Position numbers and translations under genes: made by a program. A stretch of DNA of 64,000 bases from a virus. The DNA is taken from positions 1 to 64,000 of IMG/VR virus record IMGVR_UViG_3300025696_000001. One strand, written 5' to 3'. Below, piece after piece: positions 33,408-64,000 of this stretch. Position 1 is the stretch's first letter. Every line of letters begins with the position of its first letter. The notes below the pieces were generated by a model. The model was not told the DNA's origin, ran no database searches, and was given only the letters and a program-made list of their open reading frames with translations.

Positions 33408-34386
33408 ATATTTTTTCTTTAATTATTTCTAACAATTCATTTCTTTGTGATCTACCATTATTATAACGGTTATAATCTGGATTAGCTGTTTTATAAACTT
33501 TAGCTATATCCATTAAAGAAAGTACAGGTTTGTTGTAGATTATATATTCTTCTGCATTACCTGTGTCGTAAAACCATTTACGATTTTCTGGAAATTTAGT
33601 AAAACTAGGTCCGTGAAAATGTTTAGTTTTTAAAATATCATGATCTGTTGATAATATAGAAACACCATAAAGAGTTTCTTCCATGTTAGAGTATAATTCT
33701 TTACCATCTTCAGTAGTCATTACTAATTTAGGTTTTTTAGAATCAATATATTCTTGAGTAGCTTGTTTTGTTGAAAAATAAATCATATTTAAACCATGAC
33801 CTTTCCAATTATAGTAAATAAAACCTGATATACTAGTACGATTTTTATATCCACCATAACATTTATCATCTTCAAATATATCAACACCGTCTTCTGTTAT
33901 AAATAATGGTTTTTTAACGTGTTTAGCTTCTTTAATTTCACGAATAAAAGTATCTTCTTTATACTTATTGTTCCCTAAACCATAATGCATTTTATTGTTT
34001 TTTATTAAAAAACTAGTTATATGTATAGCTTCTATAAAACCAGAATTTAACTCATCACCAATAGTAAATACTTTACCATCTGACAATCTTTTTACAGATT
34101 GTATAGATACTCCTTTATTTGTAAAAAATGCATCTTGAGTTATATTCCAAAAATTATCATTTTTATTAATTATACCTGTTGAAGTTTTAAAAGACAATAT
34201 TTTATAATCTTTTTCAATAATTTCTTGCCAAAATTCTGGATAATCTTGTGGAGTATTAACACCAGATTGAAATGAATTAGATCCTACTTTATACATATAA
34301 TGAGTACTAAACTCAGTATGTTTTTTAATTTCAGTTCCAAGTTTTAAACTACCTGGATATTCTTTGATTAATTTATACTTTTTCAT
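33391..34386 (-). CDS. Hypothetical protein with internal repeats (331 aa)
   Basis: Two clear repeats of about 65 aa: KP-x-x-x-TEDG-x-(D/E)-(I/L)-(F/Y) ... (Y/W)F-x-T-x-x-x-A-x-EYI. Confidence 0.6.
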   Translation of the reverse strand: MKKYKLIKEYPGSLKLGTEIKKHTEFSTHYMYKVGSNSFQSGVNTPQDYPEFWQEIIEKDYKILSFKTSTGIINKNDNFWNITQDAFFTNKGVSIQSVKRLSDGKVFTIGDELNSGFIEAIHITSFLIKNNKMHYGLGNNKYKEDTFIREIKEAKHVKKPLFITEDGVDIFEDDKCYGGYKNRTSISGFIYYNWKGHGLNMIYFSTKQATQEYIDSKKPKLVMTTEDGKELYSNMEETLYGVSILSTDHDILKTKHFHGPSFTKFPENRKWFYDTGNAEEYIIYNKPVLSLMDIAKVYKTANPDYNRYNNGRSQRNELLEIIKEKIYGKDK

Positions 34387-34493
34387 TGCATTACATACAT
34401 TACACTGTTATTAATATTTAATGCTATTGCATTATCTTGTGTTATAAAATCCTGTGGATCATTATATAACGTTTTTTCAAATATATTCATTTT

Positions 34494-35435: not shown

Positions 35436-35453
35436 ATTTTATTTTAATTAAAA

Positions 35454-35473
35454 AGCAGGCTGTTACACCTGCT
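35454..35473 (-). terminator. Intrinsic terminator after the small MazG-like gene
   Basis: Minus-sense hairpin AGCAGG-UGUAACAG-CCUGCU followed by UUUUUAAUU. Confidence 0.55.
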
Positions 35474-35478
35474 TTATT

Positions 35479-35661
35479 TTATAGTTCTTTAATTGCTCGT
35501 TTTAAGTAAAGAGCTTGATCTAATGTTTCTTCATAAGCGTGTTGTAGTCATTGTTTATGGTTTAGATCTGTACGATCCAATGTTACACCATACTTTTTGA
35601 TTCCAACTTCACTACGTTGCTTTAGATCAGCTCTAACGCTTTCTACTATTTGGTCTGTCAT
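35479..35661 (-). CDS. Small MazG-like / dNTP-pyrophosphohydrolase-like protein (60 aa), one in-frame TGA
   Basis: MTDQIVESVRADLKQRSEVGIKKYGVTLDRTDLNHKQ[TGA]LQHAYEETLDQALYLKRAIKEL. The pattern R..G..KYG....W...A.EE..D..YL is typical of small phage all-alpha NTP-PPases. TGA at 35548-35550. Confidence 0.55.
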
Positions 35662-35747
35662 CTACTTTCTTTTTTATTTTAAGTCTCTTGAGCCAGCCTG
35701 TGCTGTCAAGATGTCTATAATGCTGTCTTGCTTTCATTGTTTAAATA

Positions 35748-36938
35748 TTATTGTTTTATATATTTAATGCAATCATATATGCTGTCATGTTCAATAACAT
35801 TATATGCATTAATGTTGCTAATCATTCGTTGATACCACTTTTCTTCTTGTGTACCTTTAGTTACAAGTATAAACAAGCCACCCGTTTCCTTATTGTCTTT
35901 TCTGATACGTCCAGCACGTTGTATTAAATCCTTTTCAGAACTGTAATACGACATTGCTATTACATTATCTAAGCCTTTAATGTTGGCGCCTTGTTTTAAT
36001 ACTTTAAAACTAGCTATTTCTTTTAATTTACCATCTTCAAAATCTTTCCTTATTTTATCATTTACATCGGAGCTATTCCTCGACGATATAACGTTCTTTG
36101 TTACCTTTGATAAGGCATCTAATGAATTACCAAATATTATGGTATTTTTAAGGTGCGGAAGTAATAAATTTATAGCATTTACTTTACTTTCCAAATTATA
36201 TAGAAGTGTTGCACGTTTGTTTATAGCAATGCGAGCAAACAATTCTTGTTTTGATTTATCATCCACAAATTGACTTTGCATTAGTCTTTTGGACCAATAG
36301 CTATAAGCTTCTTTTTCTGTTTGATAAAATGGTTTTTTGATACTACCAGCTTTTACTGTTTTTTCTATCTCTTCGAGCTGGTTATATATGATATGTATAT
36401 CTAAGTTTCTATTTAGATCATCTTCTCGTGCATCGTCAATAGTATATCTATATATTATAGGGCAATACTTGTTAAGATATGTGCCTTTATTTATAAGATC
36501 CCCTGTTCTGGTTTCATACTCTGTTTTGACATCTATCTTTGCTGAAAGACCTATAATAGCTTTATACTTGTTGTTTTTATAGAAATTGGAATATGATGGA
36601 GTGAGACTATCATGGATCTCATCTGCAATTATTAAACCGAATTCTTTACCTTTTCACTTATATGCTGACTGATAACAATAAAACTTAAGGTTATAAGATT
36701 TCATTGTATCTACATTATTTAACTTATCAAAGAGAGATATAGATTTTAATAAATCTTTTTCTCGTTCTTTAGTTTCAGCTAAATAAAGGTGTAAATCCTC
36801 ATTAGGATTCATTGAATGCAAAGCAAGCAATGCTATAAAGGTTTTTCCAACACCTGTACTTACCTCTACTGTACCACATTTACCAGCAGCAATTCACTTA
36901 TCTCAAGCTTCTTTCTGGATTTTATTTCTTTTATCCAT
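35748..36938 (-). CDS. SF2 (DExH) helicase, 396 aa when three in-frame TGA codons are read through
   Basis: Motif I STGVGKT, motif II ADEIH, motif VI QRAGRIRK. The N-terminal 219 codons are joined to track ORF 35748..36281 only if the TGAs at 36903-05, 36894-96 and 36654-56 are sense. Confidence 0.8.
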
Positions 36939-36974
36939 GCTTATGTTTATTAAGTTTGGTATGAAGCTTAAACA

Positions 36975-37142
36975 CTAATCCCAATATGTATTTAAGCCTA
37001 TTGTTTTTAGCGCTATAAACCTTTCTACGTCTTGAGAGCAATAAGAACCCTTTTCCATAGACTGGGTCGTTGTTCATTTCTGGAAATTCTCCCATATTAA
37101 ATTATTTTTTTGTAGCATTTCTACTACTTCTTGTTTAATCAT
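36975..37142 (-). CDS. Small hypothetical protein (55 aa), tentative, one in-frame TGA
   Basis: The ATG overlaps the upstream stop (AATGATTAA). Ends in TAG. TGA at 37074-76. A competing 48-aa basic ORF in another frame cannot be excluded. Confidence 0.25.
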
Positions 37143-37257
37143 TACTTTCTTTTTTTAATAAGAAAATAATACTATTAATTTCAGATACTTCATCTGAACC
37201 AAGTCTATCGCTCCAATCTAACATTTGTTGAAGTCTTTGTATAGCTTTTTTATTCAT
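37135..37257 (-). CDS. Small hypothetical protein (40 aa)
   Basis: MNKKAIQRLQQMLDWSDRLGSDEVSEINSIIFLLKKESND. The ATG sits 3 nt after the upstream stop. Confidence 0.3.
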   Translation of the reverse strand: MNKKAIQRLQQMLDWSDRLGSDEVSEINSIIFLLKKESND

Positions 37258-37259
37258 AA

Positions 37260-37673
37260 TTATTTTTTGATAATATTAAAAACATCTCTTTTTTTATCAT
37301 TTATTCTTTTAAATTTTTGTTTATAGTTTGATGAAATTACAGATAATCCAGTACAATGAGTATTTTTATTTATCATATTTAATTCTCTCCAGCAATCATC
37401 AAAATGAAAATGAAAATCACCTAAATAATTAAATTTATCTTCAAAATTAGTAAACCGTATATTATTACGATCTATTTTTAGCTTATCTGATATTTTAAAT
37501 AAATCATCATTGTTCATATCAGGTCTATTCCATTGAAGATCAGGTCTTTCATATCTACTTGTAGTTATGTAAATATCATAGCCTTTTCTAATCAAACTAA
37601 AACAAAAATCCTGAACGTCTTGTCTTGAAAGAGTACTGTCAAAATCAAAACTTATCTTATTTTTTTTATTCAT
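37260..37673 (-). CDS. HAD-superfamily phosphatase (possible 5' nucleotidase)
   Basis: Motif I ISFDFDSTL (DxDxT) near the N-terminus, motif II ITTSR, acidic motif HFDDC. Start taken at ATG 37673. Confidence 0.65.
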   Translation of the reverse strand: MNKKNKISFDFDSTLSRQDVQDFCFSLIRKGYDIYITTSRYERPDLQWNRPDMNNDDLFKISDKLKIDRNNIRFTNFEDKFNYLGDFHFHFDDCWRELNMINKNTHCTGLSVISSNYKQKFKRINDKKRDVFNIIKK

Positions 37674-37809
37674 ATATTTTAATCCACCTCCCACCCGCCA
37701 TTACGCTGTTTAAACAATATAGTTAAAGGGCGTATAAATACACACTTTATAAAATAGATTCTTACTTGTAACCTATGCATCGGTGCCTATACCTGCTATT
37801 GTTGTTTAA

Positions 37810-38058
37810 TTATTCTACTTCTACAATATGTTTTATTAAAGAAATACTACTTACATTATCTTTCATATTGTTTCTATCAATTTTATTAATAGGAATATTA
37901 AAATATACTGTACCTTTACTTGTTTCTGTTTTATAACTAATTGAAGAAACGTCTGTAACTAATAATAAATCATTAGTTCTTTCTGCCATAGGATTTTCTT
38001 TCTTTAATGTTTTTACTGCAATAGCTTTGTAGTTAACTGTTTTTAATATATCATTCAT
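37810..38058 (-). CDS. Hypothetical protein (82 aa)
   Basis: ORF with TAA stop. No motif recognised. Confidence 0.5.
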   Translation of the reverse strand: MNDILKTVNYKAIAVKTLKKENPMAERTNDLLLVTDVSSISYKTETSKGTVYFNIPINKIDRNNMKDNVSSISLIKHIVEVE

Positions 38059-38060
38059 AA

Positions 38061-38222
38061 TTATGACTCTCCGATTTCAAGTATTTGGTTTTCTAATTCA
38101 ATTACCTCATCTTCCATTTCTTCTACTACTGTATCTAAATATTCAAGTTCTTGAATTAATCTTTGATTAGTAATATTTCCATTTTTTACGTCGGTAATTA
38201 TAGCTTTTAATAGCTCTGACAT
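38061..38222 (-). CDS. Small coiled-coil protein (53 aa)
   Basis: MSELLKAIITDVKNGNITNQRLIQELEYLDTVVEEMEDEVIELENQILEIGES. Fills the gap between nrdA and the next gene. Too short to appear in the ORF track. Confidence 0.4.
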   Translation of the reverse strand: MSELLKAIITDVKNGNITNQRLIQELEYLDTVVEEMEDEVIELENQILEIGES

Positions 38223-38244
38223 TTTATTTAAATTTAAATTTTGT

Positions 38245-39891
38245 TTAACTTTCGCATGCTACACATGTATTAATATCTCTTGCAAAACTTTGTGCTGCAC
38301 TTTGACTAAATTGATAATAAAGTGTTTTAACACCTTCTTCCCAAGCATATATGTAGAGCTTATTAACCTCTTTTGCTGAAACAGAAGGATGTATCATCAA
38401 GTTGAGTGACTGACTTTGATCAATGTGTTTTTGTCTTTGTGCTGCTTGTAATACAAGTTCTTTTGGTGATATTTCTATAAATGATTTAAATACTTCTTTA
38501 GTAGGAAAATCTAAGTGTTGTACACTTCCATCATTATCAAGAATGCTTTTCCAAACCTCTGGTGTATCAAGATTGTACTGCTCAAGTTGCTGCCTAAGCA
38601 TTTCATTCTTATATACTGATTTGACTTTAGCAAGATCTTTAATAAAATAATTGGACTTTATTGGTTCGATACCCATACTTACTTGTCCAAGTATATAACT
38701 ACTTGATTTTGTTGGTGCAATAGCCATTACCGTTGTATTGGCATATCCTTCTCGAATAGATTTCATTTCTAGAAAATCATGACACCATTTACTAGCTGCT
38801 TGAGCTTTTTCATTTATAGTTTTAAAAATTATACTATTCCAATATTTAGCCTTCAGACTATCTACTTCTAACAATTCACTTTGTAAAAAAGAATGCCACC
38901 CTAACACACCAAGACCTATAGCCCTGTGGTCCTTTGCAAATCTCCACGCTCTCTTCATACCAGGAAGGTGCTCAGACTTTTTAATAAAGTCTTCTATCAC
39001 GGCGTTAAGGAATTGTATGTAAACTTCTACAGCATCAGTATTCGCAATCTCTTTCCAGTGAAGTAGATTGATACTACCCAAACAACAGACAAAGCTGTTA
39101 TAAGTGTCCTGTGGTAGCTGTATTTCTGAACAAAGGTTGCTAGCTTTAATATCTAGACCAAGCTCTTTGTACGGACTGTTGTTATTGGAATTATCCTTAA
39201 ACATTATATAAGGGAAACCAAAATCTTTACGTTTCTGTATGATTTTAGCCCAAATCTTTCTCTTTCCAGAGTCTCCATCTTTCATGGCATTCATCCACGC
39301 ATCCGTGACTGTGACGCCAAATTGAAGATTTTGAATGGGATTGCCCTCGTCCCCAATTTTAAGGAATTCCATTATATCTGGGTGTTCAACGGGTAAATAG
39401 AGAGCACATGCCCCTCTTCTGGATTCACCCTGCTTACATCTATCGATAATGGTATCGTAGATTTTAGCGTAATGAACAGGACCGTCTGCATAGCCACCTC
39501 CTGATATTACTGAACCTCTTTTTCTTATATTGCCTAAATACATGGATGTACCACCTCCATATTTAGACATCATTCCTATTTCTCTTGCTCCATTTAGGAT
39601 ACTATCCATTGTGTCATCTACATCAGAACCATAACAACTAATAGGCAAAGCCTTTTCATATCCAAAATTACACCATACGGGAGTTGATAGACTATAATAG
39701 CCCAGTGCCATGTAGTTTTCAAACTTTTCAGCTCATCCTTTTATCCCTAAAATCTTTTCTGCGTAATTTCCTATGTCTTTAATCCTCTGTTCTGCTGTGA
39801 TACCGTTTTTAAGATATCCTCTATTTAGGAACTTTCTTGACTCGTCATTAAGCCAATAGTACTTCTCTCTTTTCTTTTTCTCTATTTCCAT
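38245..39891 (-). CDS. nrdA: Ribonucleotide reductase class I large subunit (548 aa), one in-frame TGA
   Basis: NLCSEI active-site Cys, APTKSSSYILG, C-terminal CVAC pair. The N-terminal 60 codons (MEIEKKKREKYYWLNDESRKFL..GIKG[TGA]AEKFENY) join in frame through the TGA at 39733-35. Confidence 0.85.
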
Positions 39892-39955
39892 TAATGTTTT
39901 TTAAACACCTATGGATATTATTTAATGTTAACAATACCCATAAGTGGATATTGTT

Positions 39956-40930
39956 TTAGAAGAGGTCATCTTCTGTAATACTTTCTGATTTCTTGTTATA
40001 ATCAATTGATTTTTTATAAAAGAAATCACCTTCTTTGGTTGATTTAATTTCAACATCAAACCACATTGTAGATTCTAAAGATTGAGTTTGGACCTCAAAT
40101 ACTTCTTTCATACCAATGCTCTGTAGGCTATTGTTAAATCTATTTTTGATAAACTCGGTTATTGTTTCTTTTGATAAAAAACTTAATTCACCTTTCTCAA
40201 ATATCCAATCTAATACTTTACATTCAGCCTCGAAAGCTTTTACACATGCAGATCGTATTAGTTCTTCAAATTCTTCATCAAACCATTCAGGGTTTTCTTT
40301 TTTAATAATATTGATTATATCTATACCAAAATTACCATGTACATCTTCTTCTTTGCTGGTTGCCTCGACTATATTACTCACACCCTTAAATAAGTTAAGT
40401 TCCTTATTGAATGACATCATTATAAGGAATTGACTAAATAAAGATACATGCTCTATAAACAAACTAAATAAAAGGACAGATTTTGTATACATCTTATCAC
40501 TTTTACTTCTGGTTCCAGATAAGTATTTTTCAAGATAGGAAATTCTATCTTTAATTGCTGGTACATCAGTAATTGTTTGAAATTCATCTTCAAGACCCAA
40601 TACTTCGAGTAAATGTTTATAAGCATCAAAGTGCCTAGCTTCACTTTCACTAAAAGTAGCTCCTACAGCTTGAATTTCATATTTAGGTAGACGTTTATAC
40701 AGATCACCCCAAAAAGCCTTTACATTGACTTCTATCTGAGCTATTGCAAGCATGGAACGCTTGATTGCCTCACGTTGACTGTCTGTAACTTTAGTCATGA
40801 AATCAGAAATATCTTCTGTAACATTAAATTCACTATGTATTCAATAAGAATGCCTTATAGCATCCTTATACTTGAGAAGCTCAGGATACTCATAAGGCAA
40901 TACTGATTTACGTTTCTCAAATATATTCAT
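39956..40930 (-). CDS. nrdB: Ribonucleotide reductase class I small subunit (324 aa), one in-frame TGA
   Basis: Di-iron ligands SESEARHF and KEEDVHGNF. Acidic C-terminal tail ITEDDLF. N-terminus MNIFEKRKSVLPYEYPELLKYKDAIRHSY[TGA]IHSEF places the TGA (40841-43) at the conserved FFW-x-x-EE Trp. Confidence 0.85.
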
Positions 40931-41109
40931 TATGATATCATTTCTTCCAATTGGTTCATTCTATCATTTACAGCATCTTTCAGCTTAGAATGTATTTTTG
41001 TATAACGACCATTACTGGTACGAAGATTAACTTCGTATTTTCCAATACTCGTTCCACTCATTCTTTTTGTTACTCCTTTAAATCCTGTATTCGTTCTAAT
41101 TTTATTCAT
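40930..41109 (-). CDS. Small AP2-domain DNA-binding protein (59 aa)
   Basis: TGFKGVTKRMSGTSIGKYEVNLRTSNGRYTKIHSKLKDAVNDR matches the AP2 (GV...KY.a.i..nGk...g.f...eA) pattern seen in phage HEG-associated domains. TAATG overlap with nrdB. Confidence 0.5.
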   Translation of the reverse strand: MNKIRTNTGFKGVTKRMSGTSIGKYEVNLRTSNGRYTKIHSKLKDAVNDRMNQLEEMIS

Positions 41110-41125
41110 TTTCTCTTTTTTTAAT

Positions 41126-41434
41126 TTAGTTTTCTTTTACAAATGCACCATTTACCATAGTACCTTTGCGTTTGTTAATAATATTGTAAGCTCCTTCTAA
41201 ACATTCTAATAAGTTTAATTCTTGCAATTCTGCTTGTAGTATTATTGTTACCAATATATCACCTAGAGCGTCCTTTATTTCCTCTCGGTCGTTACTATTT
41301 ATTGCTGCAAGAAGCTCATTGACTTCTTCTAATGTTTTAATGGCTTGTGCCATTGGTGTTGCTTTTTTAAGGATACCTTTATCTGCTCCTCATTGTACTA
41401 TTAACGGTTGTAATTTACTATAACTATACTCCAT
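41126..41434 (-). CDS. MazG-type nucleoside triphosphate pyrophosphohydrolase (102 aa), one in-frame TGA
   Basis: EEVNELLAAI...DALGDILVTIILQAE core. N-terminus MEYSYSKLQPLIVQ[TGA]GADKGILKKATP joins through the TGA at 41390-92. Confidence 0.7.
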
Positions 41435-41450
41435 ATCTCTCTTTTTGGAT

Positions 41451-42038
41451 TTAGTTTTGTTTGAAAATATCTGACATATTTTCAAGTGTTATATTTGATT
41501 TATCATTAAAATCAAAAGTTTCAGATTCAATGTCTATTGGATCTTTTAGTTCAGAACCTTTGTCTATAGAAACACCTAATTCTTTTTCAAGTTCTTTTCT
41601 TAAATCTTCAGATTTATCGAATACTTGCTTCATTTTTTTTATGTTCTTTCTTATAAACCCAGGAACATGACCAAACATATCAGTCCAATATTGTATTATT
41701 ATTAATTTATAATCTTCTGAAAGCTCTGAATATCTTCCAGCTATAAATCTAGCTATATCTTCAATATATTCTTCTGGTATCTTATATTCATACAATACCT
41801 CATCTTCAACAGAATAAGATTTTAGATAAAGTTCATTATCTGTAAATACACTTTCATTTTTTGAAAAATTTATATCTCTATAATTAAACTTGCATTTTAT
41901 ATAAAATTTACCAATTTTCAAATCTCTACTTGTAAATAAATAGGTATTTGTAATAAAAGATCTATTTCTGTTATCTATATTTATTCATTGACATAATAAT
42001 GGAAGAATATAGCTTTTGCTTTTGTTTACATTTACCAT
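41451..42038 (-). CDS. Hypothetical protein (195 aa), one in-frame TGA
   Basis: The ATG overlaps the upstream stop (ATGGTAA). Its frame is continuous with track ORF 41451..41921 through the TGA at 41985-87. Confidence 0.55.
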
Positions 42039-43333
42039 TCATTACTCTTTTCTGATTTAGTTGATTCAAAAGTAGCTATTGATGATTTAATAGACTTGTT
42101 CTTTAAAGTATTTATTCCTATTTTTCGTTCAAGATCTTTTTGATGTTTTTCCATCATATCTTTATATCTCTTATGAACATTATCTGCATCAGAATACACA
42201 TTAATTGAAGAATCTATCACCTCTTGTGGTACATCTCTTAATTCTTCTTCAAAAGATTTTTCTTTTTCTCCCTTCTTAAGATTTTTAGAAAACTGTTTTA
42301 CAAATGAAAAATGTCTACCATCAAAATAGTTTGCTCTACCTGTTTGAATTGACATTAAACCTCTTTTATAATAATCAATTGGATAATCATATAGATCTTT
42401 TTCTATATGTTCTTGAATTTCTTTTAAATAGTCTTTTATTCCTTTAAAATATCTTTCATCTCTATTATCCCATCCTAACCATGTTGATACAATATCTTTT
42501 CTTTCAACTTTATATAAAACAGGTTCTTCATCCTTGTTTACAATTATAAAAGAAGGTTCAAGTATTGCATAATCTTTTAATTCTGGTTTTTCATCAACAT
42601 AACATTTTAAACCAATTGTATACAGACATGCTTGTATATCATATCTATATTTAAAAAAACTTTTTATAAAATCAGAAGTCTTAAAAGAAGTAAACTTTAG
42701 ATCATTTATCTGAATAGTCTTTTTATTGTGGTTAATATGAATGTTATCAACTACACTTTTAAATTTAAAACCTTCATACTCAAACTCTAAAACAATTTGA
42801 TTGAGATTTTGATATATCTCAATATTTTTATTGTTGAAAAACTTTTCAGTATACTGATTGTTTTTTAATTTATTAGCCATATTGACAATATCAATATAAA
42901 AAGAACTTGTAATAATCTTTTTACCTTTTGATTTAATATTGTCAAGAATAAATAATTTTATGTTATCTATTCTTTCATCTTTGATTGTATTGCTACCACT
43001 TGTCCTATCTGATTTAAATAAACCAGCTTCTACAGCAGTATCATTACATAACTCTACAAACTCTGGACTATTTAATATTTCTTGATTAATTACACCTGCG
43101 GTATTTTTTTCAATTAATTCAAGAAGGGTATTTTCCATTGAAGTAAGTTTTACATCAATATCACTTATATAATATTTTTTGTCAAAATCATCATATATAT
43201 AATCATCAAGAGCTTTTCCTTGAGAAAGTCCTTTACTTGATTTTTTTCTTTCTGTTATAAGTGATTTAGGACCTTCTTCAATAAATCTTAATATAGAGCT
43301 ATATGAATTATAATCCTTATCTTTGTTTAACAT
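42032..43333 (-). CDS. PD-(D/E)XK (RecB/Cas4-like) nuclease
   Basis: VDNIH...INDLKFT (D...D-x-K) followed by YDIQACLY (QxxxY). Confidence 0.55.
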   Translation of the reverse strand: MLNKDKDYNSYSSILRFIEEGPKSLITERKKSSKGLSQGKALDDYIYDDFDKKYYISDIDVKLTSMENTLLELIEKNTAGVINQEILNSPEFVELCNDTAVEAGLFKSDRTSGSNTIKDERIDNIKLFILDNIKSKGKKIITSSFYIDIVNMANKLKNNQYTEKFFNNKNIEIYQNLNQIVLEFEYEGFKFKSVVDNIHINHNKKTIQINDLKFTSFKTSDFIKSFFKYRYDIQACLYTIGLKCYVDEKPELKDYAILEPSFIIVNKDEEPVLYKVERKDIVSTWLGWDNRDERYFKGIKDYLKEIQEHIEKDLYDYPIDYYKRGLMSIQTGRANYFDGRHFSFVKQFSKNLKKGEKEKSFEEELRDVPQEVIDSSINVYSDADNVHKRYKDMMEKHQKDLERKIGINTLKNKSIKSSIATFESTKSEKSNEW

Positions 43334-43354
43334 TTAATTAGTTATTAAATTTTG

Positions 43355-43735
43355 TTAGTAGACTTTTATATAAACTCCAGGTTTATCCTTACTATAAGTA
43401 GAATATTCTCCCTTTATCTTAAAAGGAAAAGGAACCATTTCAGTAATGTTATCATCCTCAAGCCATTCAGCATGAACCATTTCGTCCTGTACTGTCTGTA
43501 TTGGATTTACCCAGTCATATTTATGACGAGTACCTCTTACAAAATGAAAACCTATTTTATATGGTTTCTCTTTTCCTTCTAATAATTCTAAAAATCTATC
43601 TTTATTCTCTTCCCACCATTTAGCGGTGTTTTTCTTTCATACTTTGGTAGCTTTTGATGCTATAAAGTATCTTCCAGTTCATCTACGTCCATTTTTACTG
43701 GATGGACAATTAGATGGGCAAAATAATAATTTCAT
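43355..43735 (-). CDS. RusA-like Holliday junction resolvase (126 aa), two in-frame TGA
   Basis: CPSNCPSSKNGRR[TGA]TGRYFIASKATKV[TGA]KKN...FHFVRGTRHKYDWVNPIQTVQDEMVHAEWLEDDNI parallels the RusA pattern PPSNNRY...R.DlDN..K...D.L....DD. TGAs at 43679-81 and 43637-39. Confidence 0.5.
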
Positions 43736-44807: not shown

Positions 44808-46304
44808 TTAATTTATATCATTGGTAAATTTAGAATAAAACTTGTGTTCGGTAACACCTTCTGGATCAACCTTGTTAAGATTTTCCATTAATGATTTTCT
44901 TTCAGAATTATATTTTAAATTTGAATTTAGAATACCATCAGTAAATTCTTCATTATCTTTTGCAACCATTTTTATTATGGTTTCAAGGATATTTGATTTA
45001 TTACTTATTGAATTTAAAAAACTACTATCAGTAAACTTTTCAGTATATTGATTTGCTGCAGCAACCATAGCTGCTGAACTAGCTATAAAATGAAATATCT
45101 TAAAGAAATCAAAAGTATTGTTATGCTGTCTAAACTCTACTGTTTGCTTATTGGTAAATATAATGGGAATTATATTAAACCACGCATAACGAGGAGCAAT
45201 ATTCCATTTTCTGTTACCACTTGGATCATTTGGATGTTTTGTTACATTGTCAAGATCATTATCATACATTGAAAAATCATGACCCATTGAAAGATAATTA
45301 AATAAACTGTTAAACAGTGACTTAACACCTGTTCTGGTTGACTTTAGATTCTGATTAAAAACATCCTTGTTGATTGGGGCACTATAATTCTTTGATTTAC
45401 CATATGCAATTGAATCTTTTTTATAATGAGGCTGCATTGCATATATATCATTTTCTACAAGACATGATATGTTGTTCATTGCAAGAATATTATTTGGATC
45501 TCTTTTAAGACCACCCAAATGAATATGCATTGAACATTTAAAATCATATTTGGTTCTGTCTTTTAGCAATTCACATATATCCATTAAATTATAAAGACCC
45601 TTAGCTCCAGACAACGGAATTGTAACATATTCAAGACCCTGAATACTACCATCACGAAGAGGTATTAAACCATGTTTATAACATAATCTTTCAGGTATAT
45701 AACCTGATGAAGTCTCAAATTCAACACCATATGTAATACCGTTCTTTTCAAGAAATTTACCCAGTTCATCTATCATTTTATTACCTCCAGATGGTTTATA
45801 AAATGTATCATATGCCCTTTTGGTCATATCACTGGCAAATCTACTATCATAGATTAAATCATTTTTATTGATTGGAGGTCTCTTTATTGATTTAAATTTT
45901 GCATCGGACATTACATTAGACTCATAAAATGTTCCACTGTTATAATGCTCTTTATAATTATCACCCAAGATTTCTTGATTTATTGCTAAATTATTTAATC
46001 TTGAGCTTAATGAAACATTTACATTTTTTGTTATATTGGAGGTAAAGAACCCCAATATTGGAGTTCCATCTTTTTCAAATCCTACAACACCTCTTCTCAA
46101 AGGAACTTTATTTGTTAGAACATATTCTTTTTTTTCATAGTCATATTCTATAAGTCCATTGTTAAATCTATGATATTTACCATCAACCTTATAACATTCA
46201 CCGCTATCCTTTACTTTTGTGTCACCTATTTTATAAAAAGTATTTTGTATCTTTCTACAGTGGCTTCGTTCTATCATTTCTCCACTATACGTTTTTACTT
46301 TCAT
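44808..46304 (-). CDS. Glutamine-synthetase-fold amidoligase (Amidoligase_2-like)
   Basis: GVEFETSSG, LRDGSIQGLEYVTIPL, CSMHIHLGG and VEFRQHNNT match the phage COOH-NH2 ligase family signature. Confidence 0.65.
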   Translation of the reverse strand: MKVKTYSGEMIERSHCRKIQNTFYKIGDTKVKDSGECYKVDGKYHRFNNGLIEYDYEKKEYVLTNKVPLRRGVVGFEKDGTPILGFFTSNITKNVNVSLSSRLNNLAINQEILGDNYKEHYNSGTFYESNVMSDAKFKSIKRPPINKNDLIYDSRFASDMTKRAYDTFYKPSGGNKMIDELGKFLEKNGITYGVEFETSSGYIPERLCYKHGLIPLRDGSIQGLEYVTIPLSGAKGLYNLMDICELLKDRTKYDFKCSMHIHLGGLKRDPNNILAMNNISCLVENDIYAMQPHYKKDSIAYGKSKNYSAPINKDVFNQNLKSTRTGVKSLFNSLFNYLSMGHDFSMYDNDLDNVTKHPNDPSGNRKWNIAPRYAWFNIIPIIFTNKQTVEFRQHNNTFDFFKIFHFIASSAAMVAAANQYTEKFTDSSFLNSISNKSNILETIIKMVAKDNEEFTDGILNSNLKYNSERKSLMENLNKVDPEGVTEHKFYSKFTNDIN

Positions 46305-46319
46305 TGTTTTATTATTTTT

Positions 46320-48434
46320 TTAAAAATTACCATTTTCATCTCCAGTATTTGATCCATCCATATTAAAATTTGGTGAAAATTCATTGTACATATCTTCAGA
46401 AGCTCTCATTGCTATATAAGTATATTCCTCTTCATCCAACTGTTCATCTTCATCAACTTCACCACAACTGTCACAATCATTCTCAAATATTGTAGATTCT
46501 ATATAGTTTTTAATTGGTTTATAACTTTTTTCAAAATTATCTAGCCATTCAGCTATATTCAATTCCTGATCATATTTTTCTGGATGTTCAAATACTATAC
46601 TTTTACCTATTTCAATTGATTCATCCATTGCATTTATAAAATCATCATATTTGTTGTAAAGATCTTCATCATCAAGTTCACTTTCCTCATCATCAGTATC
46701 AGTTTCCTTAATTGTGTTCTTTAAAACATTTTGAATATTCTTTTTGAAATCACCAGATTTTATACTATCATTTTCATCTAATATTTTATCTTTGTCATCT
46801 ACGGGATTAGGTACCATTTTTATAGATGAATTATCTAACATGCCATTTCTGACAACATATGAATACGTACTACCTATTGGTTTAAAGTAGTCATAAAGGC
46901 AAATTTCACCATTTGCTATTATTTTATTCTTATACTCATCTTTCTTACTTTCAAGTATTTCATGCTTGTTTACAGTAAGTTCATTACCAGTATAATAATG
47001 ACACACTGGATATTTAGACATGTGTGACATTTGACTATTTGTAAAGAAATTATCTGCAGAATCCATACATACAATATAATCATGCTCATTTTTAAGCATT
47101 AATCCATTATATAGATAGTATAATGTTAAATCTGAACAATCTCCAAATACCTTTGAAATATTACTTTTTGAATTATGTGATATAATTTTATAATCCTTAA
47201 GAATTTCTCTAGTTTTAGTAATTGAATCACTAACATATATAAGACCTCTTTGTTTGGAATAGATATAAACACCATTCTTTGCAAAACTGTCTCCATTCAT
47301 GTACCTAAGTCTTTCATATCTAAGAGAATTATCATCTAATTCATCACATGTTCTTAATATCTTCTCAAAAAATATACTTTTGGATTGAAGTATTTCAGTT
47401 TCAGTTAATCCCTCACTGTTACCCAAATGGTTTTTAACAATAGTTTTCTTTCTATGATTTTCCTTAGGCTCTTCTTCTTTTCTTACATATTTAGTTTTCT
47501 TTTTTTCTTTATCTTTTAAAGCCCTGTTATATTCAACCATAGTAGAATATTTTTTATTCTTTGTACGATCAATATCAATTGCTTTACCAAGTCTACCTCC
47601 TTTTACTGCAACAAGACCATTATCTGGAAAAGTATATATTTCTACATCTTCTTCAGTATGTCTTTTTCCAGCAATTATTTCAAGATGTTCAGGTAATGAT
47701 GACCAATACATACTTCCTTCTTGATCATACCAATAATGAAGAGGTCTTTCGACTTCAGTAATTGCATTTGCCCATGTATCAACTTTTGATTTACCTTTAA
47801 AAAACCATACATTCTCAGGTTCTCTTTCAGAAAACATAACAAGAGCAGCTCTACCTGTATATTCTTGTAGAACTTTGATATTCTTATTGGAGTTATCATC
47901 TTTTTGTTTTGATAATATTTCCAAAAGAATCTCACTATCAACTTTTAGTCTACCGTTATCTCTTTCATCAATACCATATTTCTCAGCAAGAAAAGAATGA
48001 TTTTTTAAAGTACCATTATGAGCACCAATAAAATACTTACCATCTTCCATTATAAATTTAAATGGATGGGTATTTTCTACACTTTTGGTACCTCCTCTTG
48101 AGGAATTTCTGGTATGACCAATAATGACAGGGATATCTTTTGGATTGGGAAACTTATGTTTTATCATCATATCCCTAAACTTGGCTTCATTGTTGGAACC
48201 TATGTTATCACCTCTATAAAGCTCTCCATCTACAAATATACCACATGAGTCAGTACCTCTGGATTCATTCAGTATACCGAGTGTTATAAATTTATCTCTG
48301 TTGAATTTACTAACATCATCACCTGTCCATCCAAAATTACCACATGATAGGATATTTTTATTACTATTTGGTCTTATTAAATTTGATAACATTGTAGATA
48401 TCAAAAATAATAATATTATATTAAATATAAGCAT
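46320..48434 (-). CDS. Class II (Ntn) glutamine amidotransferase fused to a C-terminal region of about 400 aa with unknown function
   Basis: LSC|GNFGW, RGTDSCGIFV, GHTRNSSRGG..NTHPF, GAHNGTLKN, DSEILLE. The catalytic Cys is preceded by a hydrophobic leader of about 30 aa. Acidic C-terminal stretch. Confidence 0.7.
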   Translation of the reverse strand: MLIFNIILLFLISTMLSNLIRPNSNKNILSCGNFGWTGDDVSKFNRDKFITLGILNESRGTDSCGIFVDGELYRGDNIGSNNEAKFRDMMIKHKFPNPKDIPVIIGHTRNSSRGGTKSVENTHPFKFIMEDGKYFIGAHNGTLKNHSFLAEKYGIDERDNGRLKVDSEILLEILSKQKDDNSNKNIKVLQEYTGRAALVMFSEREPENVWFFKGKSKVDTWANAITEVERPLHYWYDQEGSMYWSSLPEHLEIIAGKRHTEEDVEIYTFPDNGLVAVKGGRLGKAIDIDRTKNKKYSTMVEYNRALKDKEKKKTKYVRKEEEPKENHRKKTIVKNHLGNSEGLTETEILQSKSIFFEKILRTCDELDDNSLRYERLRYMNGDSFAKNGVYIYSKQRGLIYVSDSITKTREILKDYKIISHNSKSNISKVFGDCSDLTLYYLYNGLMLKNEHDYIVCMDSADNFFTNSQMSHMSKYPVCHYYTGNELTVNKHEILESKKDEYKNKIIANGEICLYDYFKPIGSTYSYVVRNGMLDNSSIKMVPNPVDDKDKILDENDSIKSGDFKKNIQNVLKNTIKETDTDDEESELDDEDLYNKYDDFINAMDESIEIGKSIVFEHPEKYDQELNIAEWLDNFEKSYKPIKNYIESTIFENDCDSCGEVDEDEQLDEEEYTYIAMRASEDMYNEFSPNFNMDGSNTGDENGNF

Positions 48435-49257
48435 TTTCTTTTTTTTCTTTTTTATTATATTTTACCAATAATTCATTTACTTTTTCCAAATCAAGATCTT
48501 CTTCTGGATTTATGTACATAGAAACATCTTCAAGTAGATCTTCAGTAGATATATGACTGTTTTTTGCCATTTCCACTGCTTTTAAAGACCTTCTGTATAT
48601 ATCTCTTACACTATCTTCATCTTTTAGAAAATAACCTCCTAGAGAGCGACATTCAACACCATAGTCTTTTTCTCTTATGTCACCTATCTTACCATAGAAC
48701 TTTCTACGGTTATGATCATCATTATCTTCCAATAACAAAGGTAAGCTAACACATATCTCAAAAAATACAGCCAATCTATCAATCTCATTTTCTGTTGGGT
48801 TATCCCATCCAAAATGAATGTGAAAACCTGAAGATCTCATTTTAATACCTTGAATTTCTTCTTGATCAATTTCTATGATTCTTTTTGCAATTACATTATA
48901 TGCAGGTTCACATCCAAAAATATGAGCTTTTTCATCTTCTAATATCTCATCAGTAGCAAGCTCACTACTAGAATAATGAAGATCCATGTTCAATGGTGCT
49001 ATAAGTAATTCAATATATGATTTTGCATAATTTATTGAATCAACAAATTGATCTTCAGATCTACATGGTGGAATATTAAATTCAGCAAGAATATTATCTT
49101 CTTGAATAAAACATCCTTCACCAATATCTTGTGGGTTATTTTTGTCAGCATTAAAAACACCTATTATAGAACCTATTTTCCCTGTCTTTGATCCTTTTAC
49201 AAATACTTCTGGGTCTGATCCTATTGTTAAATTACTATAACTGTTCTTGTAATCCAT
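48421..49257 (-). CDS. Second amidoligase (phage COOH-NH2 ligase type 2-like)
   Basis: IGSDPEVFV, EDNILAEFNIPPC, GFHIHFGW, ECRSLGGYF. Confidence 0.6.
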   Translation of the reverse strand: MDYKNSYSNLTIGSDPEVFVKGSKTGKIGSIIGVFNADKNNPQDIGEGCFIQEDNILAEFNIPPCRSEDQFVDSINYAKSYIELLIAPLNMDLHYSSSELATDEILEDEKAHIFGCEPAYNVIAKRIIEIDQEEIQGIKMRSSGFHIHFGWDNPTENEIDRLAVFFEICVSLPLLLEDNDDHNRRKFYGKIGDIREKDYGVECRSLGGYFLKDEDSVRDIYRRSLKAVEMAKNSHISTEDLLEDVSMYINPEEDLDLEKVNELLVKYNKKEKKENAYI

Positions 49258-49891
49258 TCTCTATTAGTTTTATTGTATATTCTTTAAATTCATTACTCGC
49301 ATGTGCAAACTCAGGATGTCCCTGAATACACAAACTGTTTGTATTGTTGTAATACACTACTTCACACTCTTCAAAATCATCAGGTATGTCAATGCTGACA
49401 TTATCTCCATTGAGATATTTTTCTGAAAGGAATTCAGTTGCTGATGCGAGTATTTTATAGTTTGATTTATCCATATTAAATGGATACATCATTTGATGGT
49501 GTGTTGAGGTTACTTCAATTATTTCATTATCGCTTGTATTTATATAATGACTGTTACCATGACCTGTTACATGCTGAATAAGTTTACCTCCACTCATTAC
49601 AGTCAAAAACTGAGATCCTCTACATATACCTAATTTTAATAATCCATCTGGTAAAGAATTAAAGAATTCTTCTTCTATTACATCTCTACGAATATTTATA
49701 CCTGTTTGGTTTCCTCTATTTTCATTATAATATTCTGGATTAACATCTGCTCCTCCAGTAAATAATGCAAATGTTATACCTTCTTCATTTGGATTATCAG
49801 TTAATTCAACATCATAATATTTATTTAAAAATGTTAAATAATTGTTACCAAAATAATCAAAATTTGTAAATACCTTAATCTTCTTTTTCAT
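49235..49891 (-). CDS. Class I glutamine amidotransferase / gamma-glutamyl hydrolase (peptidase C26-like)
   Basis: FTGGADVNPEYY, nucleophile elbow GICRGSQFL, HHQMM, QGHPEF. Confidence 0.65.
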   Translation of the reverse strand: MKKKIKVFTNFDYFGNNYLTFLNKYYDVELTDNPNEEGITFALFTGGADVNPEYYNENRGNQTGINIRRDVIEEEFFNSLPDGLLKLGICRGSQFLTVMSGGKLIQHVTGHGNSHYINTSDNEIIEVTSTHHQMMYPFNMDKSNYKILASATEFLSEKYLNGDNVSIDIPDDFEECEVVYYNNTNSLCIQGHPEFAHASNEFKEYTIKLIENGLQEQL

Positions 49892-50642: not shown

Positions 50643-50650
50643 TTTATTTT

Positions 50651-50788
50651 TTATTTTTTATTATTTAATAATTTTTTACTTTTAAAATCAGCTATCATAC
50701 TATAAAATATTTCTTTTTCTTCTTCAGTAGCTTCACTCCATACTGCATCACTAAAAGGACTTTTATTAGTCTCTTTATAATCAGCCAT
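50651..50788 (-). CDS. Small acidic protein (45 aa), tentative
   Basis: MADYKETNKSPFSDAVWSEATEEEKEIFYSMIADFKSKKLLNNKK fills the only gap inside the ligase cluster. Confidence 0.3.
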   Translation of the reverse strand: MADYKETNKSPFSDAVWSEATEEEKEIFYSMIADFKSKKLLNNKK

Positions 50789-50795
50789 GTTAATT

Positions 50796-55838: not shown

Positions 55839-55875
55839 CATTTTATTCCATAAAGTGCGTAACTACTTTATGCGT

Positions 55876-56976: not shown

Positions 56977-57129
56977 AGATACAAATATACAACAGATTAA
57001 ATGGAATACCAAATAATATGTCAACTAATTTATAATAAATTTAATTATAAAATTTAGCACAGGATTATCCCCAGCTTAATCTGGTAGGACTTTCCCTGTT
57101 TAGATAGATTTAACCTCAGCTTACATTTT

Positions 57130-61917: not shown

Positions 61918-61987
61918 TGTTTTGTTTAAATTGTTTAAATTCGGAATTATTCAATATGTATTACTACATAAGGTGGCAAATCTGTTT

Positions 61988-62158
61988 ACCAACTTTACTA
62001 TTTGCAGTAACAAGATAATATTTACCCTGTTCTATACCAGCTAGTGATTCTTCAAAACGAGGCATCCCAAAAGGAATACAATTGCTTTTACCACTTATTG
62101 ATCTTTCTCTTCTTTGAGCTAGATCTCATCTTACTCTATTGAATAATGTTTTTTCCAT
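61988..62158 (-). CDS. DnaB-like replicative helicase, exon 1 (57 codons), one in-frame TGA
   Basis: MEKTLFNRVR[TGA]DLAQRRERSISGKSNCIPFGMPRFEESLAGIEQGKYYLVTANSKVG ends in the first half of the Walker A motif. TGA at 62126-28. Confidence 0.7.
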
Positions 62159-62334: not shown

Positions 62335-62922
62335 CTATTTCAATTCGGTTCTCCAATCGGAGTTTTCTGGTTCTTTTCTTGCTTGTTCAATCCATATTTC
62401 AAGTTCGGATGTTTCCTCACCTCTAAAATTTTGTTTGTATATAAAATAATCAGCACGTTTAATATATTTAAAGTTATTATTAAAACTTTCTATATATAAT
62501 TTTGTTGCTTTGATTATTTCATCAAAGTCTACGTCTGTATTTGTTTCAAGAAATCTTTCAAGTTTCTTTTTTACGGATTGTAAATTACCCATAGAACCAA
62601 CACGGATATCTTTAAATAGTAGTCTATATTCTTTAGTATAGTCTTCCATCTTTTCATCTTTTTGTTTATCAATTTTTATTGTAACAAAAAGTTTTACTAC
62701 TTTTTCACCTTTATCTCTTAAATATACACCTGTTTTATCAGATACCAAATATTCTTTTTCAATCAAATCATTGATATATACTTTATTTAAGTCATAGTCA
62801 AAATATATTTTTTTTGAACTAAGATATATTTTAATTAAACACATTATTTGGTTTATATTTATATTTAGGATTTTAAGGTCTTTAAAGTTAAATGATACGT
62901 TTTCTATATCTCATGTATTCAT
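62335..62922 (-). CDS. Hypothetical protein (195 aa if the in-frame TGA is read; 169 aa from ATG 62844 otherwise)
   Basis: The MNT[TGA]DIENVSFNF.. extension is in frame with track ORF 62335..62844 and closes the gap. TGA at 62911-13. TAG stop. Confidence 0.5.
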
Positions 62923-63095: not shown

Positions 63096-63605
63096 TTATT
63101 TCAATTTAGATTGCTTAAACTTCTTAAATCCAGATGTAATATGATAAGATTTATCATTTCTACCAGCTCTAAATGCTTGTTCTAAAGCTTCATCATCCGC
63201 TGTTATAGTCATAAGTTCATTTTTAACACCTTCTTTTTCAAATCTACGTTTATAATCATTATCATGATGATTTCTAATATGTACATGCCATTGATAATTG
63301 TTTCCATAACCAATAGGTATTTTTAAAACAGATAAAACATCAAATTTTTCTTTCAGTTTATTTACTGTAAACTTATTAGTTACATGAGCCATTACAACTC
63401 TCATTGAAGTTTTTTTAGATAATATCTCTTCTATGATATTTAATTTATTATTAAAATCTCTAGGTGACATATTAACATATTCAAGTGTTCCAAACTTACA
63501 ATTGTCGCTTGATCTGTTAAATTTAACATAACTACCTGTTTTGTTACATCTATAATTACCAGCGTTGTCAGCTTTTATTGTATTTATTATTTCTTTTTCA
63601 TTCAT
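63096..63605 (-). CDS. Hypothetical protein (169 aa)
   Basis: ORF with ATGA-type coupling to the upstream gene. Confidence 0.55.
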   Translation of the reverse strand: MNEKEIINTIKADNAGNYRCNKTGSYVKFNRSSDNCKFGTLEYVNMSPRDFNNKLNIIEEILSKKTSMRVVMAHVTNKFTVNKLKEKFDVLSVLKIPIGYGNNYQWHVHIRNHHDNDYKRRFEKEGVKNELMTITADDEALEQAFRAGRNDKSYHITSGFKKFKQSKLK

Positions 63606-64000
63606 TATTTATTTTCAATTACGTTAATAATTTTATTTACTTCTCTTAAATAATAATCATAATTAATATTATAATTATCTTTTTCTTCAAATTTATTAAA
63701 TACTATTGCATCATAACCAGCTTCTATACTTGATTCTCTATCACCTTCATCAACTTCATTAAATATGTTGATCTGATAGGTTGGTGTTTTATCTGGTAAT
63801 GGTGGTAATTGTTTAACAAGCATATCACCATCTTCTGATATATAATATCTTGTTACTTTACCTAATTTATGATCTTCAGGCTGATAGTCTTTTACAACTC
63901 TTCTAATTAACTTGTTTTGACCTGTCATTTTTACACCAAGACAAAAATCATGTATTCCATAATTTTTTGCAAAAGTATAATCACCATTTTTTAAATGTTC
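63605..64000 (-). CDS. 3' end of a window-truncated gene, possibly a family B DNA polymerase C-terminus
   Basis: The frame stays open upstream of the track Met (63928) to the window edge. The INYDYYLREVNKII tail resembles the PolB C-terminal iD..YY...Q motif. Weak call. Confidence 0.35.
   Translation of the reverse strand, partial: EHLKNGDYTFAKNYGIHDFCLGVKMTGQNKLIRRVVKDYQPEDHKLGKVTRYYISEDGDMLVKQLPPLPDKTPTYQINIFNEVDEGDRESSIEAGYDAIVFNKFEEKDNYNINYDYYLREVNKIINVIENK

Follow-up and report, generated by a model that had tools for sequence, protein, structure and literature searches.

The 64,000-nucleotide stretch analysed here (the window; positions 1 to 64,000 of the IMG/VR virus record IMGVR_UViG_3300025696_000001) is two thirds of the ~100.4-kb genome of a marine crAss-like phage of the order Crassvirales, related to Cellulophaga phage phi14:2 (NC_021806), its nearest cultured relative and one that uses the standard genetic code. 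In the genome of the marine phage, TGA is almost certainly a sense codon for tryptophan (Trp, W). We found a total of about 14 sense TGAs in 11 genes, among them those for the DNA polymerase, both subunits of ribonucleotide reductase (RNR) and a helicase, all on the minus-strand (replicative) arm, and TGA is abandoned as a terminator in all of the ~100 well-supported genes.

The initial annotation of the window had proposed ten gene-internal TGAs and a tentative eleventh between positions 35479 and 43735, and all eleven lie in frame on the minus strand, which carries every TGA-bearing gene described below (35548, 36654, 36894, 36903, 37074, 39733, 40841, 41390, 41985, 43637 and 43679). Its picture of a single recoded 8-kb block of nucleotide-metabolism genes proved too narrow, as recoding reaches along the replicative arm to the DNA polymerase and three sites were added, at 62126, at 62911 and at codon 80 of the polymerase gene. 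In the stretch first recognized, the gene for a RusA-like resolvase of 126 amino acids (43355..43735) has TGAs at 43679-43681 (codon 19) and 43637-43639 (codon 33). It is followed by TGAs at 41985-41987 (codon 18) in g41451, a 195-amino-acid gene of unknown function homologous to phi14:2 g047 (41451..42038), and at 41390-41392 (codon 15) in the gene for a 102-amino-acid MazG-like nucleoside triphosphate pyrophosphohydrolase with a match to Pfam MazG (41126..41434). The small RNR subunit NrdB (39956..40930, 324 amino acids) and the large subunit NrdA (38245..39891, 548 amino acids) have one TGA each, at 40841-40843 (codon 30) and 39733-39735 (codon 53), respectively. Three TGAs, at 36903-36905 (codon 12), 36894-36896 (codon 15) and 36654-36656 (codon 95), interrupt the gene for an SF2 helicase of 396 amino acids (35748..36938), and single TGAs are found in two small genes, g36975 (36975..37142, 55 amino acids; 37074-37076, codon 23, tentative) and g35479 (35479..35661, 60 amino acids; 35548-35550, codon 38). 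The small open reading frames (ORFs) had no Pfam match.

Reading through these codons had been predicted to join fragments into full-length proteins, and the domain matches that run across the TGAs bear this out. ResIII spans residues 5-133 of the helicase, in which Helicase_C was also matched, Ribonuc_red_sm spans residues 9-281 of NrdB, and Ribonuc_red_lgN, at residues 20-79 of NrdA, crosses codon 53. The helicase thereby regains GVGKT, in the part upstream of TGAs, which we read as the expected Walker A motif. No homologue starts or ends at a TGA, as would be expected of independent fragments, and the TGA-bearing genes contain neither in-frame TAG or TAA codons nor frameshifts.

The three added sites differ in strength. 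The TGA at 62126-62128 (codon 11) of a 64-amino-acid gene homologous to phi14:2 g024 (61964..62158) is solid: g024 aligns with residues 4-64 at 66% identity, across the TGA, many relatives align from residues 3-6, and under the standard code the locus becomes a 240-nt hole, the column at the TGA itself being variable (K, A, D, Q, E or N). In a replisome organizer-like gene of 195 amino acids (62335..62922), the alignment of phi14:2 g022 begins at residue 9, 18 residues upstream of the first standard-code ATG, and the only start codon further upstream is the ATG at 62922, before the TGA at 62911-62913 (codon 4), which is thus a probable sense codon. The DNA polymerase gene encodes 636 amino acids, with its 3′ part at 63605..64000 and its start 1,515 nt past the window end. 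Its TGA, at codon 80, lies ~1,277 nt beyond the window, in a column where phi14:2 has W, and reading it through raised the match to PHROG 1252 from 414 to 527 bits in a single stretch (residues 2-634). DLET...NFDYPVL upstream of this TGA and YCEHDV downstream of it were read by eye as three exonuclease motifs. Other candidates were rejected: the TGAs at 61951 and 63101 merely extend ORFs into a neighbouring gene, as does a TGA in an extension of a GIY-YIG gene past the window end, all without homologue support, and an ORF with two TGAs beyond the window is non-coding, phi14:2 having a stop at the same place.

The site at 37074, first listed as tentative, remains so. The TGA is kept in all three close relatives examined (below), but an ORF in another frame (36931-37095) overlaps it. 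Substitution patterns favour neither frame, g36975 has no family match, and no slippery sequence for a frameshift was identified by eye. Both overlapping ORFs (36931-37142) are conserved in the relatives, the end of the second one overlapping the helicase start, and the nucleotide core TGGGAGAATTTCCARAARTGAACAA around the TGA is strongly conserved.

The identity of the inserted amino acid was examined first in the columns of homologous proteins. The expectation of Trp at the MazG and RusA-like sites was confirmed: W occupies the column of MazG codon 15 in 142 of 150 homologues, and phi14:2 g044, 62% identical to the RusA-like protein, has W at both TGA columns. At NrdB codon 30, W was found in all 76 cellular and all 9 phage homologues and in three solved structures, including the best match (E = 4e-136). 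This residue had been equated with the radical-transfer Trp48 of E. coli R2, and W30 indeed aligned with W48 of a manually entered E. coli sequence. The columns of helicase codons 15 and 95 contain W in 55/57 and 34/64 homologues, respectively, and codon 38 of g35479 corresponds to W in a 73%-identical homologue (from L046) spanning all 60 residues. Helicase codon 12 aligns with L, F, V or I, and g41451 codon 18 with L, V or I in distant homologues. NrdA codon 53, which is TGG in two relatives, aligns with Y in 50 and F in 30 of 80 cellular homologues. Glycine dominates no column, its highest count being 4/28 at RusA codon 33 among distant homologues, which refutes code 25.

Among the sequence comparisons, those with close relatives constitute the strongest evidence on the amino acid. 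Three were used: two TARA scaffolds (L073 and L074) of ~100.5-100.9 kb, with helicases 88% identical to that of the window phage in amino acids, and Ga0307978_1000058 (L075), of 99.9 kb, with a helicase of 78% identity. Eight TGAs are kept at orthologous codons across these ocean relatives, namely RusA-like codons 19 and 33, g41451 codon 18, MazG codon 15, NrdB codon 30, helicase codons 15 and 95, and the tentative site in g36975; helicase codon 12 is TTA (Leu) in all three. Where orthologous codons differed by a swap, the partner was only TGG, never GGN or TGY. NrdA codon 53 is TGA in the window and in L075 and TGG in both TARA relatives, and TGG codons of the window correspond to TGA at RusA codon 91 (in L075), g41451 codon 118 (in the TARA relatives) and g36975 codon 54 (in all three). 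Codon 38 of g35479 is TGG in L075, in a weak alignment (25% identity).

The sense TGAs are accompanied by the loss of TGA stops; such stops were absent from all 51 genes of the plus-strand arm (48 TAA, 3 TAG) and from all 49 curated genes of the minus arm. In phi14:2, by comparison, 13 of 110 genes (12%) end in TGA, and its 275 Trp codons written TGG are accompanied by no in-frame TGA. The initial statement that no stop in the window is TGA therefore stands for every sizeable gene, with one possible exception. This is a 35-amino-acid ORF (34383-34490, minus strand) that occupies the space separating two genes; its TGA, the sole candidate terminator of this kind in the window, overlaps the start of the next gene as ATGA. 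The beginning of the ORF, MNIFEKTLYNDP, is close to the N-terminus of the NrdB of a relative, L001 (MGIFEKTLHNDP), and the ORF is possibly the remnant of a displaced reductase gene. Genome-wide, TGA may still terminate as many as four tiny ORFs, all of which have a TAA or TAG 3-16 codons further on. Small ORFs were ended at TGA in the public gene calls of the early region outside the window (L084:1-278, L084:704-1069 and L088:11326-11490) and also at L174:492-869 and 3215-3460, with an in-frame TAA or TAG within 2-16 codons; TGA could persist there as a leaky stop with a back-up.

The distribution of sense TGAs along the genome is strongly skewed. Genes lie on the plus strand up to 32437 and on the minus strand from 32574 on, and the 14 TGAs, ~5% of the ~264 Trp codons, are all on the minus arm, alongside 103 TGG in its 49 curated genes. 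The plus arm, with 57.8 kb of structural genes that include those for terminase, portal, capsid and tail proteins, contains 147 TGG, no in-frame TGA and 1,429 out-of-frame TGAs. A contrast computed before the last three TGAs were found, of 11 TGA and 29 TGG in 35479-43735 with 0 TGA among the other 247 TGG, gave a Fisher p of 1e-10. The restriction to one arm was likewise seen in the TARA relative. The skewed distribution is not that of a contiguous block imported from a recoded donor, a possibility we discarded: the polymerase, replisome organizer-like and 64-amino-acid genes carry TGAs 18-22 kb away, and the genes that bear TGAs include vertically inherited ones (RusA-like, helicase) as well as the RNR genes, which were replaced.

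Within genes the sense TGAs occupy codons 4-95 (median 21). The first 100 codons account for 14 TGA and 40 TGG, later ones for 0 TGA and 63 TGG (Fisher p = 7e-6), TGA being the first Trp codon in eight genes. The relatives carry three later TGAs (RusA 90-91, g41451 117-118 and g36975 54), and the 5′ rule is therefore a tendency. The base that follows a sense TGA is T at none of the 14 sites, against 26% for TGG codons and 43% for genuine stops; by our own calculation the chance of 14 sites without a following T is ~0.015. In phi14:2 the replicative module belongs to the early class, transcribed by an injected virion RNA polymerase, and the middle and late genes are transcribed by the host polymerase (bioRxiv 10.1101/2020.03.07.982082).

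Comparison of the window with L073 and L075 indicates how Trp codons are maintained. Four-fold sites differ by 37% and 49%, respectively, other A/G two-fold codon pairs by 19-31%, and minor codons ending in G are retained at 42% (L073) and 25% (L075). TGG was nevertheless retained at 22/23 and 21/22 positions, so that, at most Trp sites, selection must act against the change from TGG to TGA in spite of the A+T bias. TGA therefore behaves not as a free synonym of TGG but as a costly codon, acceptable or useful only in particular places. Recoding is also old, being common to ocean-wide relatives that differ at 37-49% of their four-fold sites. Among 63 more distant relatives no in-frame TGA was found in these genes, and one g41451 homologue (L046) has an in-frame stop. 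Many of these distant relatives use TGA stops, which the nearest standard-code neighbours have already lost, matching the proposed route to recoding.

The search for a decoding factor extended beyond the window, the only sequence seen in the initial annotation. The genome was reconstructed to 100,324 bp of the circle through three protein searches and look-ups along the public contig, ENA ERZ23491538 (KRUG19-1_SAMN03169777_METAG-scaffold_135, 100,650 bp), of which the window is 36196-100195. Other assemblies, of 100,518 and 100,531 bp, indicate a true size of ~100.39 kb if they are circular with k-mer overlaps, which leaves 66-326 bp unread at one assembly junction and at least 99.7% of the genome read. 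ARAGORN, run with default and relaxed thresholds, detected no transfer RNA (tRNA) in the individual pieces or in the 100,324-bp genome, the only relaxed call being an implausible tRNA-Ile with a 349-nt intron. None was found by Rfam either, with E-value thresholds on the window and the early region, which together hold the replicative arm, and with gathering scores on the window; the ~19 kb of structural arm outside the window was scanned by ARAGORN only. Searching the early gaps with Rfam at a threshold as loose as E = 10 revealed no tRNA-like structure, and the fetched parts of the relatives contained no tRNA. The phage thus very probably has no canonical tRNA of its own, and what had been proposed as TGA read as Trp becomes recoding in a genome without a detected suppressor tRNA. 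Families of release factors (including release factor 1), Trp-tRNA synthetases and deaminases were also absent from the precomputed Pfam matches for called genes and from ten early genes that we scanned, a coverage short of every gene.

Two non-coding features of the early region, outside the window, were recorded in this search. A type-P1 twister match (L084:1507-1560, minus strand, equal to L088:8719-8772) lies inside a 650-nt gap between small early genes and has the conserved core nucleotides; its 43.4 bits (E ~1e-7 to 1e-6) fall short of the gathering score, which is 67.2, and folding around it gave z = -1.1 and no tRNA-like structure. A non-coding segment at L088:12618-12776 is conserved with phi14:2 (L008:4031-4500), the two copies having a stop at the same position. 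In the phi14:2 segment ARAGORN calls a 470-nt 'tmRNA' with the tag GSSVQKLAMVA, a call not made in the present phage. The intergenic region of the phi14:2 segment was reported to be very highly transcribed (bioRxiv 10.1101/2020.03.07.982082).

The explanation that we favour, and to which overall we give an even chance, is that TGA means Trp and is decoded by host-dependent, incomplete read-through. The host apparatus would decode the codon, most likely through a tRNA-Trp that competes with release factor 2 for UGA, which the avoidance of a following T fits, and read-through might be raised during infection. If it is incomplete, TGAs should survive only where a failed read wastes little: near the 5′ end, where the cost would be just a short peptide, in enzymes needed in small amounts, and perhaps in genes served by the phage virion RNA polymerase, where transcription uncoupled from translation would mean that premature termination has no Rho-type polarity. 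The TGAs could then act as translational throttles or gates on the polymerase, ribonucleotide reductase, MazG, the helicase and the resolvase. To this host-dependent leaky throttle, as a mechanism, we give somewhat less than an even chance.

Several observations weigh against this explanation. TGA is not purged at its sites, being retained at 7/8 positions in L073 and 8/8 in L075 over saturating divergence. The helicase has three TGAs, the third gained in this lineage (TTA to TGA, codon 12). In E. coli and B. subtilis, UGA read-through is known to reach a few per cent at most. At such levels the yield of a triple-TGA helicase would be negligible, which argues for efficient decoding. Moreover, the polarity argument comes from transcription data of phi14:2 and not of the present phage; an 18-kb stretch of the same arm (43.7-62.1 kb) lacks TGA; and a non-canonical suppressor RNA would escape ARAGORN and Rfam, as would anything within the ~66-326 bp unread at one junction.

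The helicase with its recent gain therefore obliges us to give substantial weight to a second, distinctly less probable explanation, in which the phage reprograms host decoding without a canonical tRNA, or by a non-canonical suppressor RNA, and TGA is read efficiently as Trp. Release factor 2 could be neutralised, the anticodon of tRNA-Trp edited or modified, the mRNA subjected to A-to-I editing, or a non-canonical RNA derived from the early non-coding transcripts, which are abundant. Such efficiency would suit three TGAs in the helicase together with one in the essential DNA polymerase, the retention of TGA noted above and the genome-wide loss of TGA stops. The many early genes without recognisable function and the conserved early non-coding regions, including the twister-like match and the segment common to phi14:2, would leave room for a factor, and suppressor tRNAs were detected in just 35% of code-4 phages, for which the same possibilities were raised (PMC7886860; 10.1101/2021.08.26.457843). 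No candidate gene or RNA was identified, however, and the shared non-coding element is also present in phi14:2, which is not recoded. Efficient decoding should also spread TGA in an A+T-rich genome, whereas it accounts for only 5% of Trp codons, is absent from the late arm, is confined to 5′ ends and leaves TGG strongly protected. In a form of this explanation that we consider equally tentative, reprogramming would turn the UGAs in the first ~100 codons into a gate on replication enzymes, whose genes, by analogy with phi14:2, probably depend on the injected virion RNA polymerase for their transcription. If this is true, phages would have a second mode of recoding, which differs in mechanism and has a timing opposite to that of the late-gene lysis-timer model.

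It is improbable that the host natively uses code 4, with UGA as Trp, and that the phage follows it. Organisms with this code (Mycoplasma, Spiroplasma, some insect endosymbionts) have a tRNA-Trp(UCA), have lost release factor 2 and use TGA as the major Trp codon genome-wide. With them and their phages the present phage shares TGA as Trp and the lack of TGA terminators in well-supported genes, and both its low G+C and the failure to find a phage tRNA would agree with such a host. In the present phage, however, TGA is rare, position-restricted and apparently disfavoured: it makes up just 14 of ~264 Trp codons with none in 57.8 kb of structural genes, its sites are biased to the 5′ end and lack T as the next base, and the retention of TGG far exceeds that of other codons ending in G. 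A few small early ORFs also look TGA-terminated, here and in the TARA relative. Furthermore, phi14:2, the nearest relative in culture, has Cellulophaga as its host and terminates genes with TGA, Flavobacteriaceae are among the sources of the most similar cellular RNR genes, and we found no free-living marine flavobacterium with code 4 in the literature.

Far less credible is the view that TGA is a true stop, with N-terminally truncated proteins made by downstream re-initiation, plus leader peptides. All TGAs are 5′-proximal and an in-frame ATG follows several of them, but essential-looking features lie upstream (GVGKT in the helicase and, in the polymerase, DLET...NFDYPVL, read as the first two exonuclease motifs), and the Trp aligned with W48 of E. 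coli R2 is itself encoded by the TGA. The upstream segments are conserved in frame, NrdB being 93% identical over its full length in the close relatives, and TGA/TGG swaps at these codons contradict a stop.

The remaining two explanations are weaker still. The conservation of TGA in close relatives, together with the TGA/TGG swaps, excludes, to all practical purposes, assembly or sequencing errors and decaying pseudogenes, as well as TGA as glycine (code 25) or selenocysteine. Each TGA is one transition from TGG, as errors might be, and the initial annotation had named assembly error as a threat; yet the TGAs recur in a separate JGI assembly (41985, 43637 and 43679), in near-identical contigs of several runs (North Sea runs yield assemblies of the same phage at 99.95-100% identity) and in orthologues on contigs of other oceans (TARA Oceans and Ga0307978), and the proteins, intact in frame, are strongly constrained (88-93% identity). 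Glycine and selenocysteine are both known meanings of UGA in bacteria, but the columns hold W, Y, F or hydrophobic residues and not G or C, the swaps were with TGG only, and fourteen selenocysteine insertion elements seem implausible, although no search for such (SECIS) elements was made.

Recoding of TGA to Trp is established in crAss-like phages, where it affects mainly late phage genes (PMC7886860), and in the current model suppressor tRNAs switch on structural and lysis genes, the replication genes of published cases being in the standard code or variably recoded (PMC7886860; 10.1101/2021.08.26.457843). The published cases are crAss-like and other gut phages in which TGA is read as Trp, or TAG as Gln (PMC7886860; 10.1101/2021.08.26.457843); the present phage matches them in order (Crassvirales), codon and amino acid. 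Partial recoding of the genome, low G+C and a prior loss of TGA stops are also common to both, and suppressor tRNAs are missing from many recoded gut phage genomes (the 35% detection for code 4) as they are here. The arrangement is reversed, with late structural and lysis genes recoded in the gut phages and, in the present phage, all 14 sites in the replicative arm and none in the 51 genes of the structural arm. The present phage also differs in that TGA is confined to ~5% of Trp codons and to the first 95 codons of genes, in that no tRNA gene of any kind was detected, and in its marine, flavobacterial setting. In the literature that we searched, recoding has not been described for marine phages of the phi14:2 type.

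Phage phi14:2 resembles the present phage in genome size, two-arm layout, gene order from UDG to helicase, giant virion RNA-polymerase genes, an amidoligase cluster and the lack of tRNA genes, and differs from it in its standard code with TGA stops and in an RNR of a different type (27-41% identity).

Outside this family, UGA is known to be read by the host tRNA-Trp in the read-through (A1) protein of the RNA phage Qbeta, and leaky UGA occurs in E. coli and B. subtilis. There, as we propose here, an ordinary host tRNA decodes UGA as Trp without a suppressor gene, and the next base sets the efficiency. The Qbeta case differs in being a single site at a gene end, with the extension present on a minority of the protein, whereas the present phage has 14 N-terminal sites in enzymes that need read-through to work at all. 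The early in-frame UGA of prfB, which senses release factor 2 activity and is escaped by a +1 frameshift at a slippery site, is another likeness, as a 5′-proximal in-frame UGA ties gene output to UGA termination; in the present phage, in contrast, the frame is kept, Trp is inserted and no shift site was seen.

The assignment of the phage to Crassvirales relies on matches of the public contig to Pfam Crass_capsid, crAss_AuxCP, CrAss_Ring_1, Ring_2, Ring_3_4, crAss_MUZ and crAss_CARG1, which are crAss-specific families of capsid, ring, muzzle and cargo proteins, and on giant virion RNA-polymerase genes and synteny with phi14:2. A virion protein of 1,312 amino acids is 43% identical to its phi14:2 counterpart and ~29% identical to those of gut crAss phages. 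Megablast of the 35-44 kb region against GenBank phages gave no match, nor did a search of IMG/VR for an exact 50-mer. The G+C content is ~28% in the window and 29.6% in phi14:2, and the minus arm has the same order of genes in both phages (UDG, RusA-like protein, exonuclease, g047-like protein, pyrophosphatase, RNR small and large subunits, SF2 helicase). Among cellular organisms, Flavobacteriaceae and Patescibacteria have the most similar RNR genes, but with an identity of only 50-54% the nearest NrdA says little about the host. Position 78 of the window is C, and T in two public assemblies, the sole difference in ~46 kb compared base by base.

Other features of the replicative arm were also noted. 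Directly after g35479, the last TGA-bearing gene of the stretch, a terminator-like hairpin with an 8-bp stem followed by a T run (35452..35475, minus strand) was predicted by a consensus scan and is visible in the sequence; it was the one useful hairpin of the terminator scan, and a promoter scan performed at chance level. Divergence from the TARA relatives is mosaic, with NrdA, NrdB, MazG and the helicase 88-93% identical (38245-41434 against its flanks) and UDG, amidoligase, exonuclease and the genes after the helicase just 45-59% identical. The reductase, different in type from that of phi14:2, has its best solved-structure matches in 6sf4/5olk and 6dqx, which we take to be class Id enzymes. 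The amidoligase cluster common to phi14:2 (44808-52477, minus strand) comprises an amidoligase, two glutamine amidotransferases, a COOH-NH2 ligase, an ATP-grasp (RimK-like) protein and a gamma-glutamyl cyclotransferase. The thymidylate synthase gene is split into two minus-strand pieces that both match PF00303 (57121-57855, 244 amino acids, and 55479-55841, 120 amino acids), separated by a GIY-YIG/I-TevI-like homing endonuclease gene (~56266-57024) and an 88-amino-acid ORF. The split resembles that of T4 td, through an intron or the insertion of a homing endonuclease; no group I intron was found there by Rfam. A second homing endonuclease gene, of the GIY-YIG/NUMOD1 type, lies directly upstream of the DNA polymerase gene, ~1.5-2.2 kb past the window end (L090:2016-2552), and the phi14:2 polymerase is annotated as a join of two pieces.

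For annotation, the consequence is that public gene calls for the contig fragment the genes for the polymerase, the two subunits of the reductase, the helicase, MazG and the resolvase, and that code prediction over a whole genome will probably overlook so few codons (~14 in 100 kb). The restriction of TGA to 5′ ends offers a new quantitative handle on what limits the spread of a reassigned codon, and phi14:2 on Cellulophaga baltica provides a cultured nearby system for experiments. This lineage, widespread in cold and temperate oceans, breaks both parts of the current model of a late-gene switch operated by a phage suppressor tRNA, and, if the pattern holds, recoding in phages would have more than one purpose and more than one mechanism.

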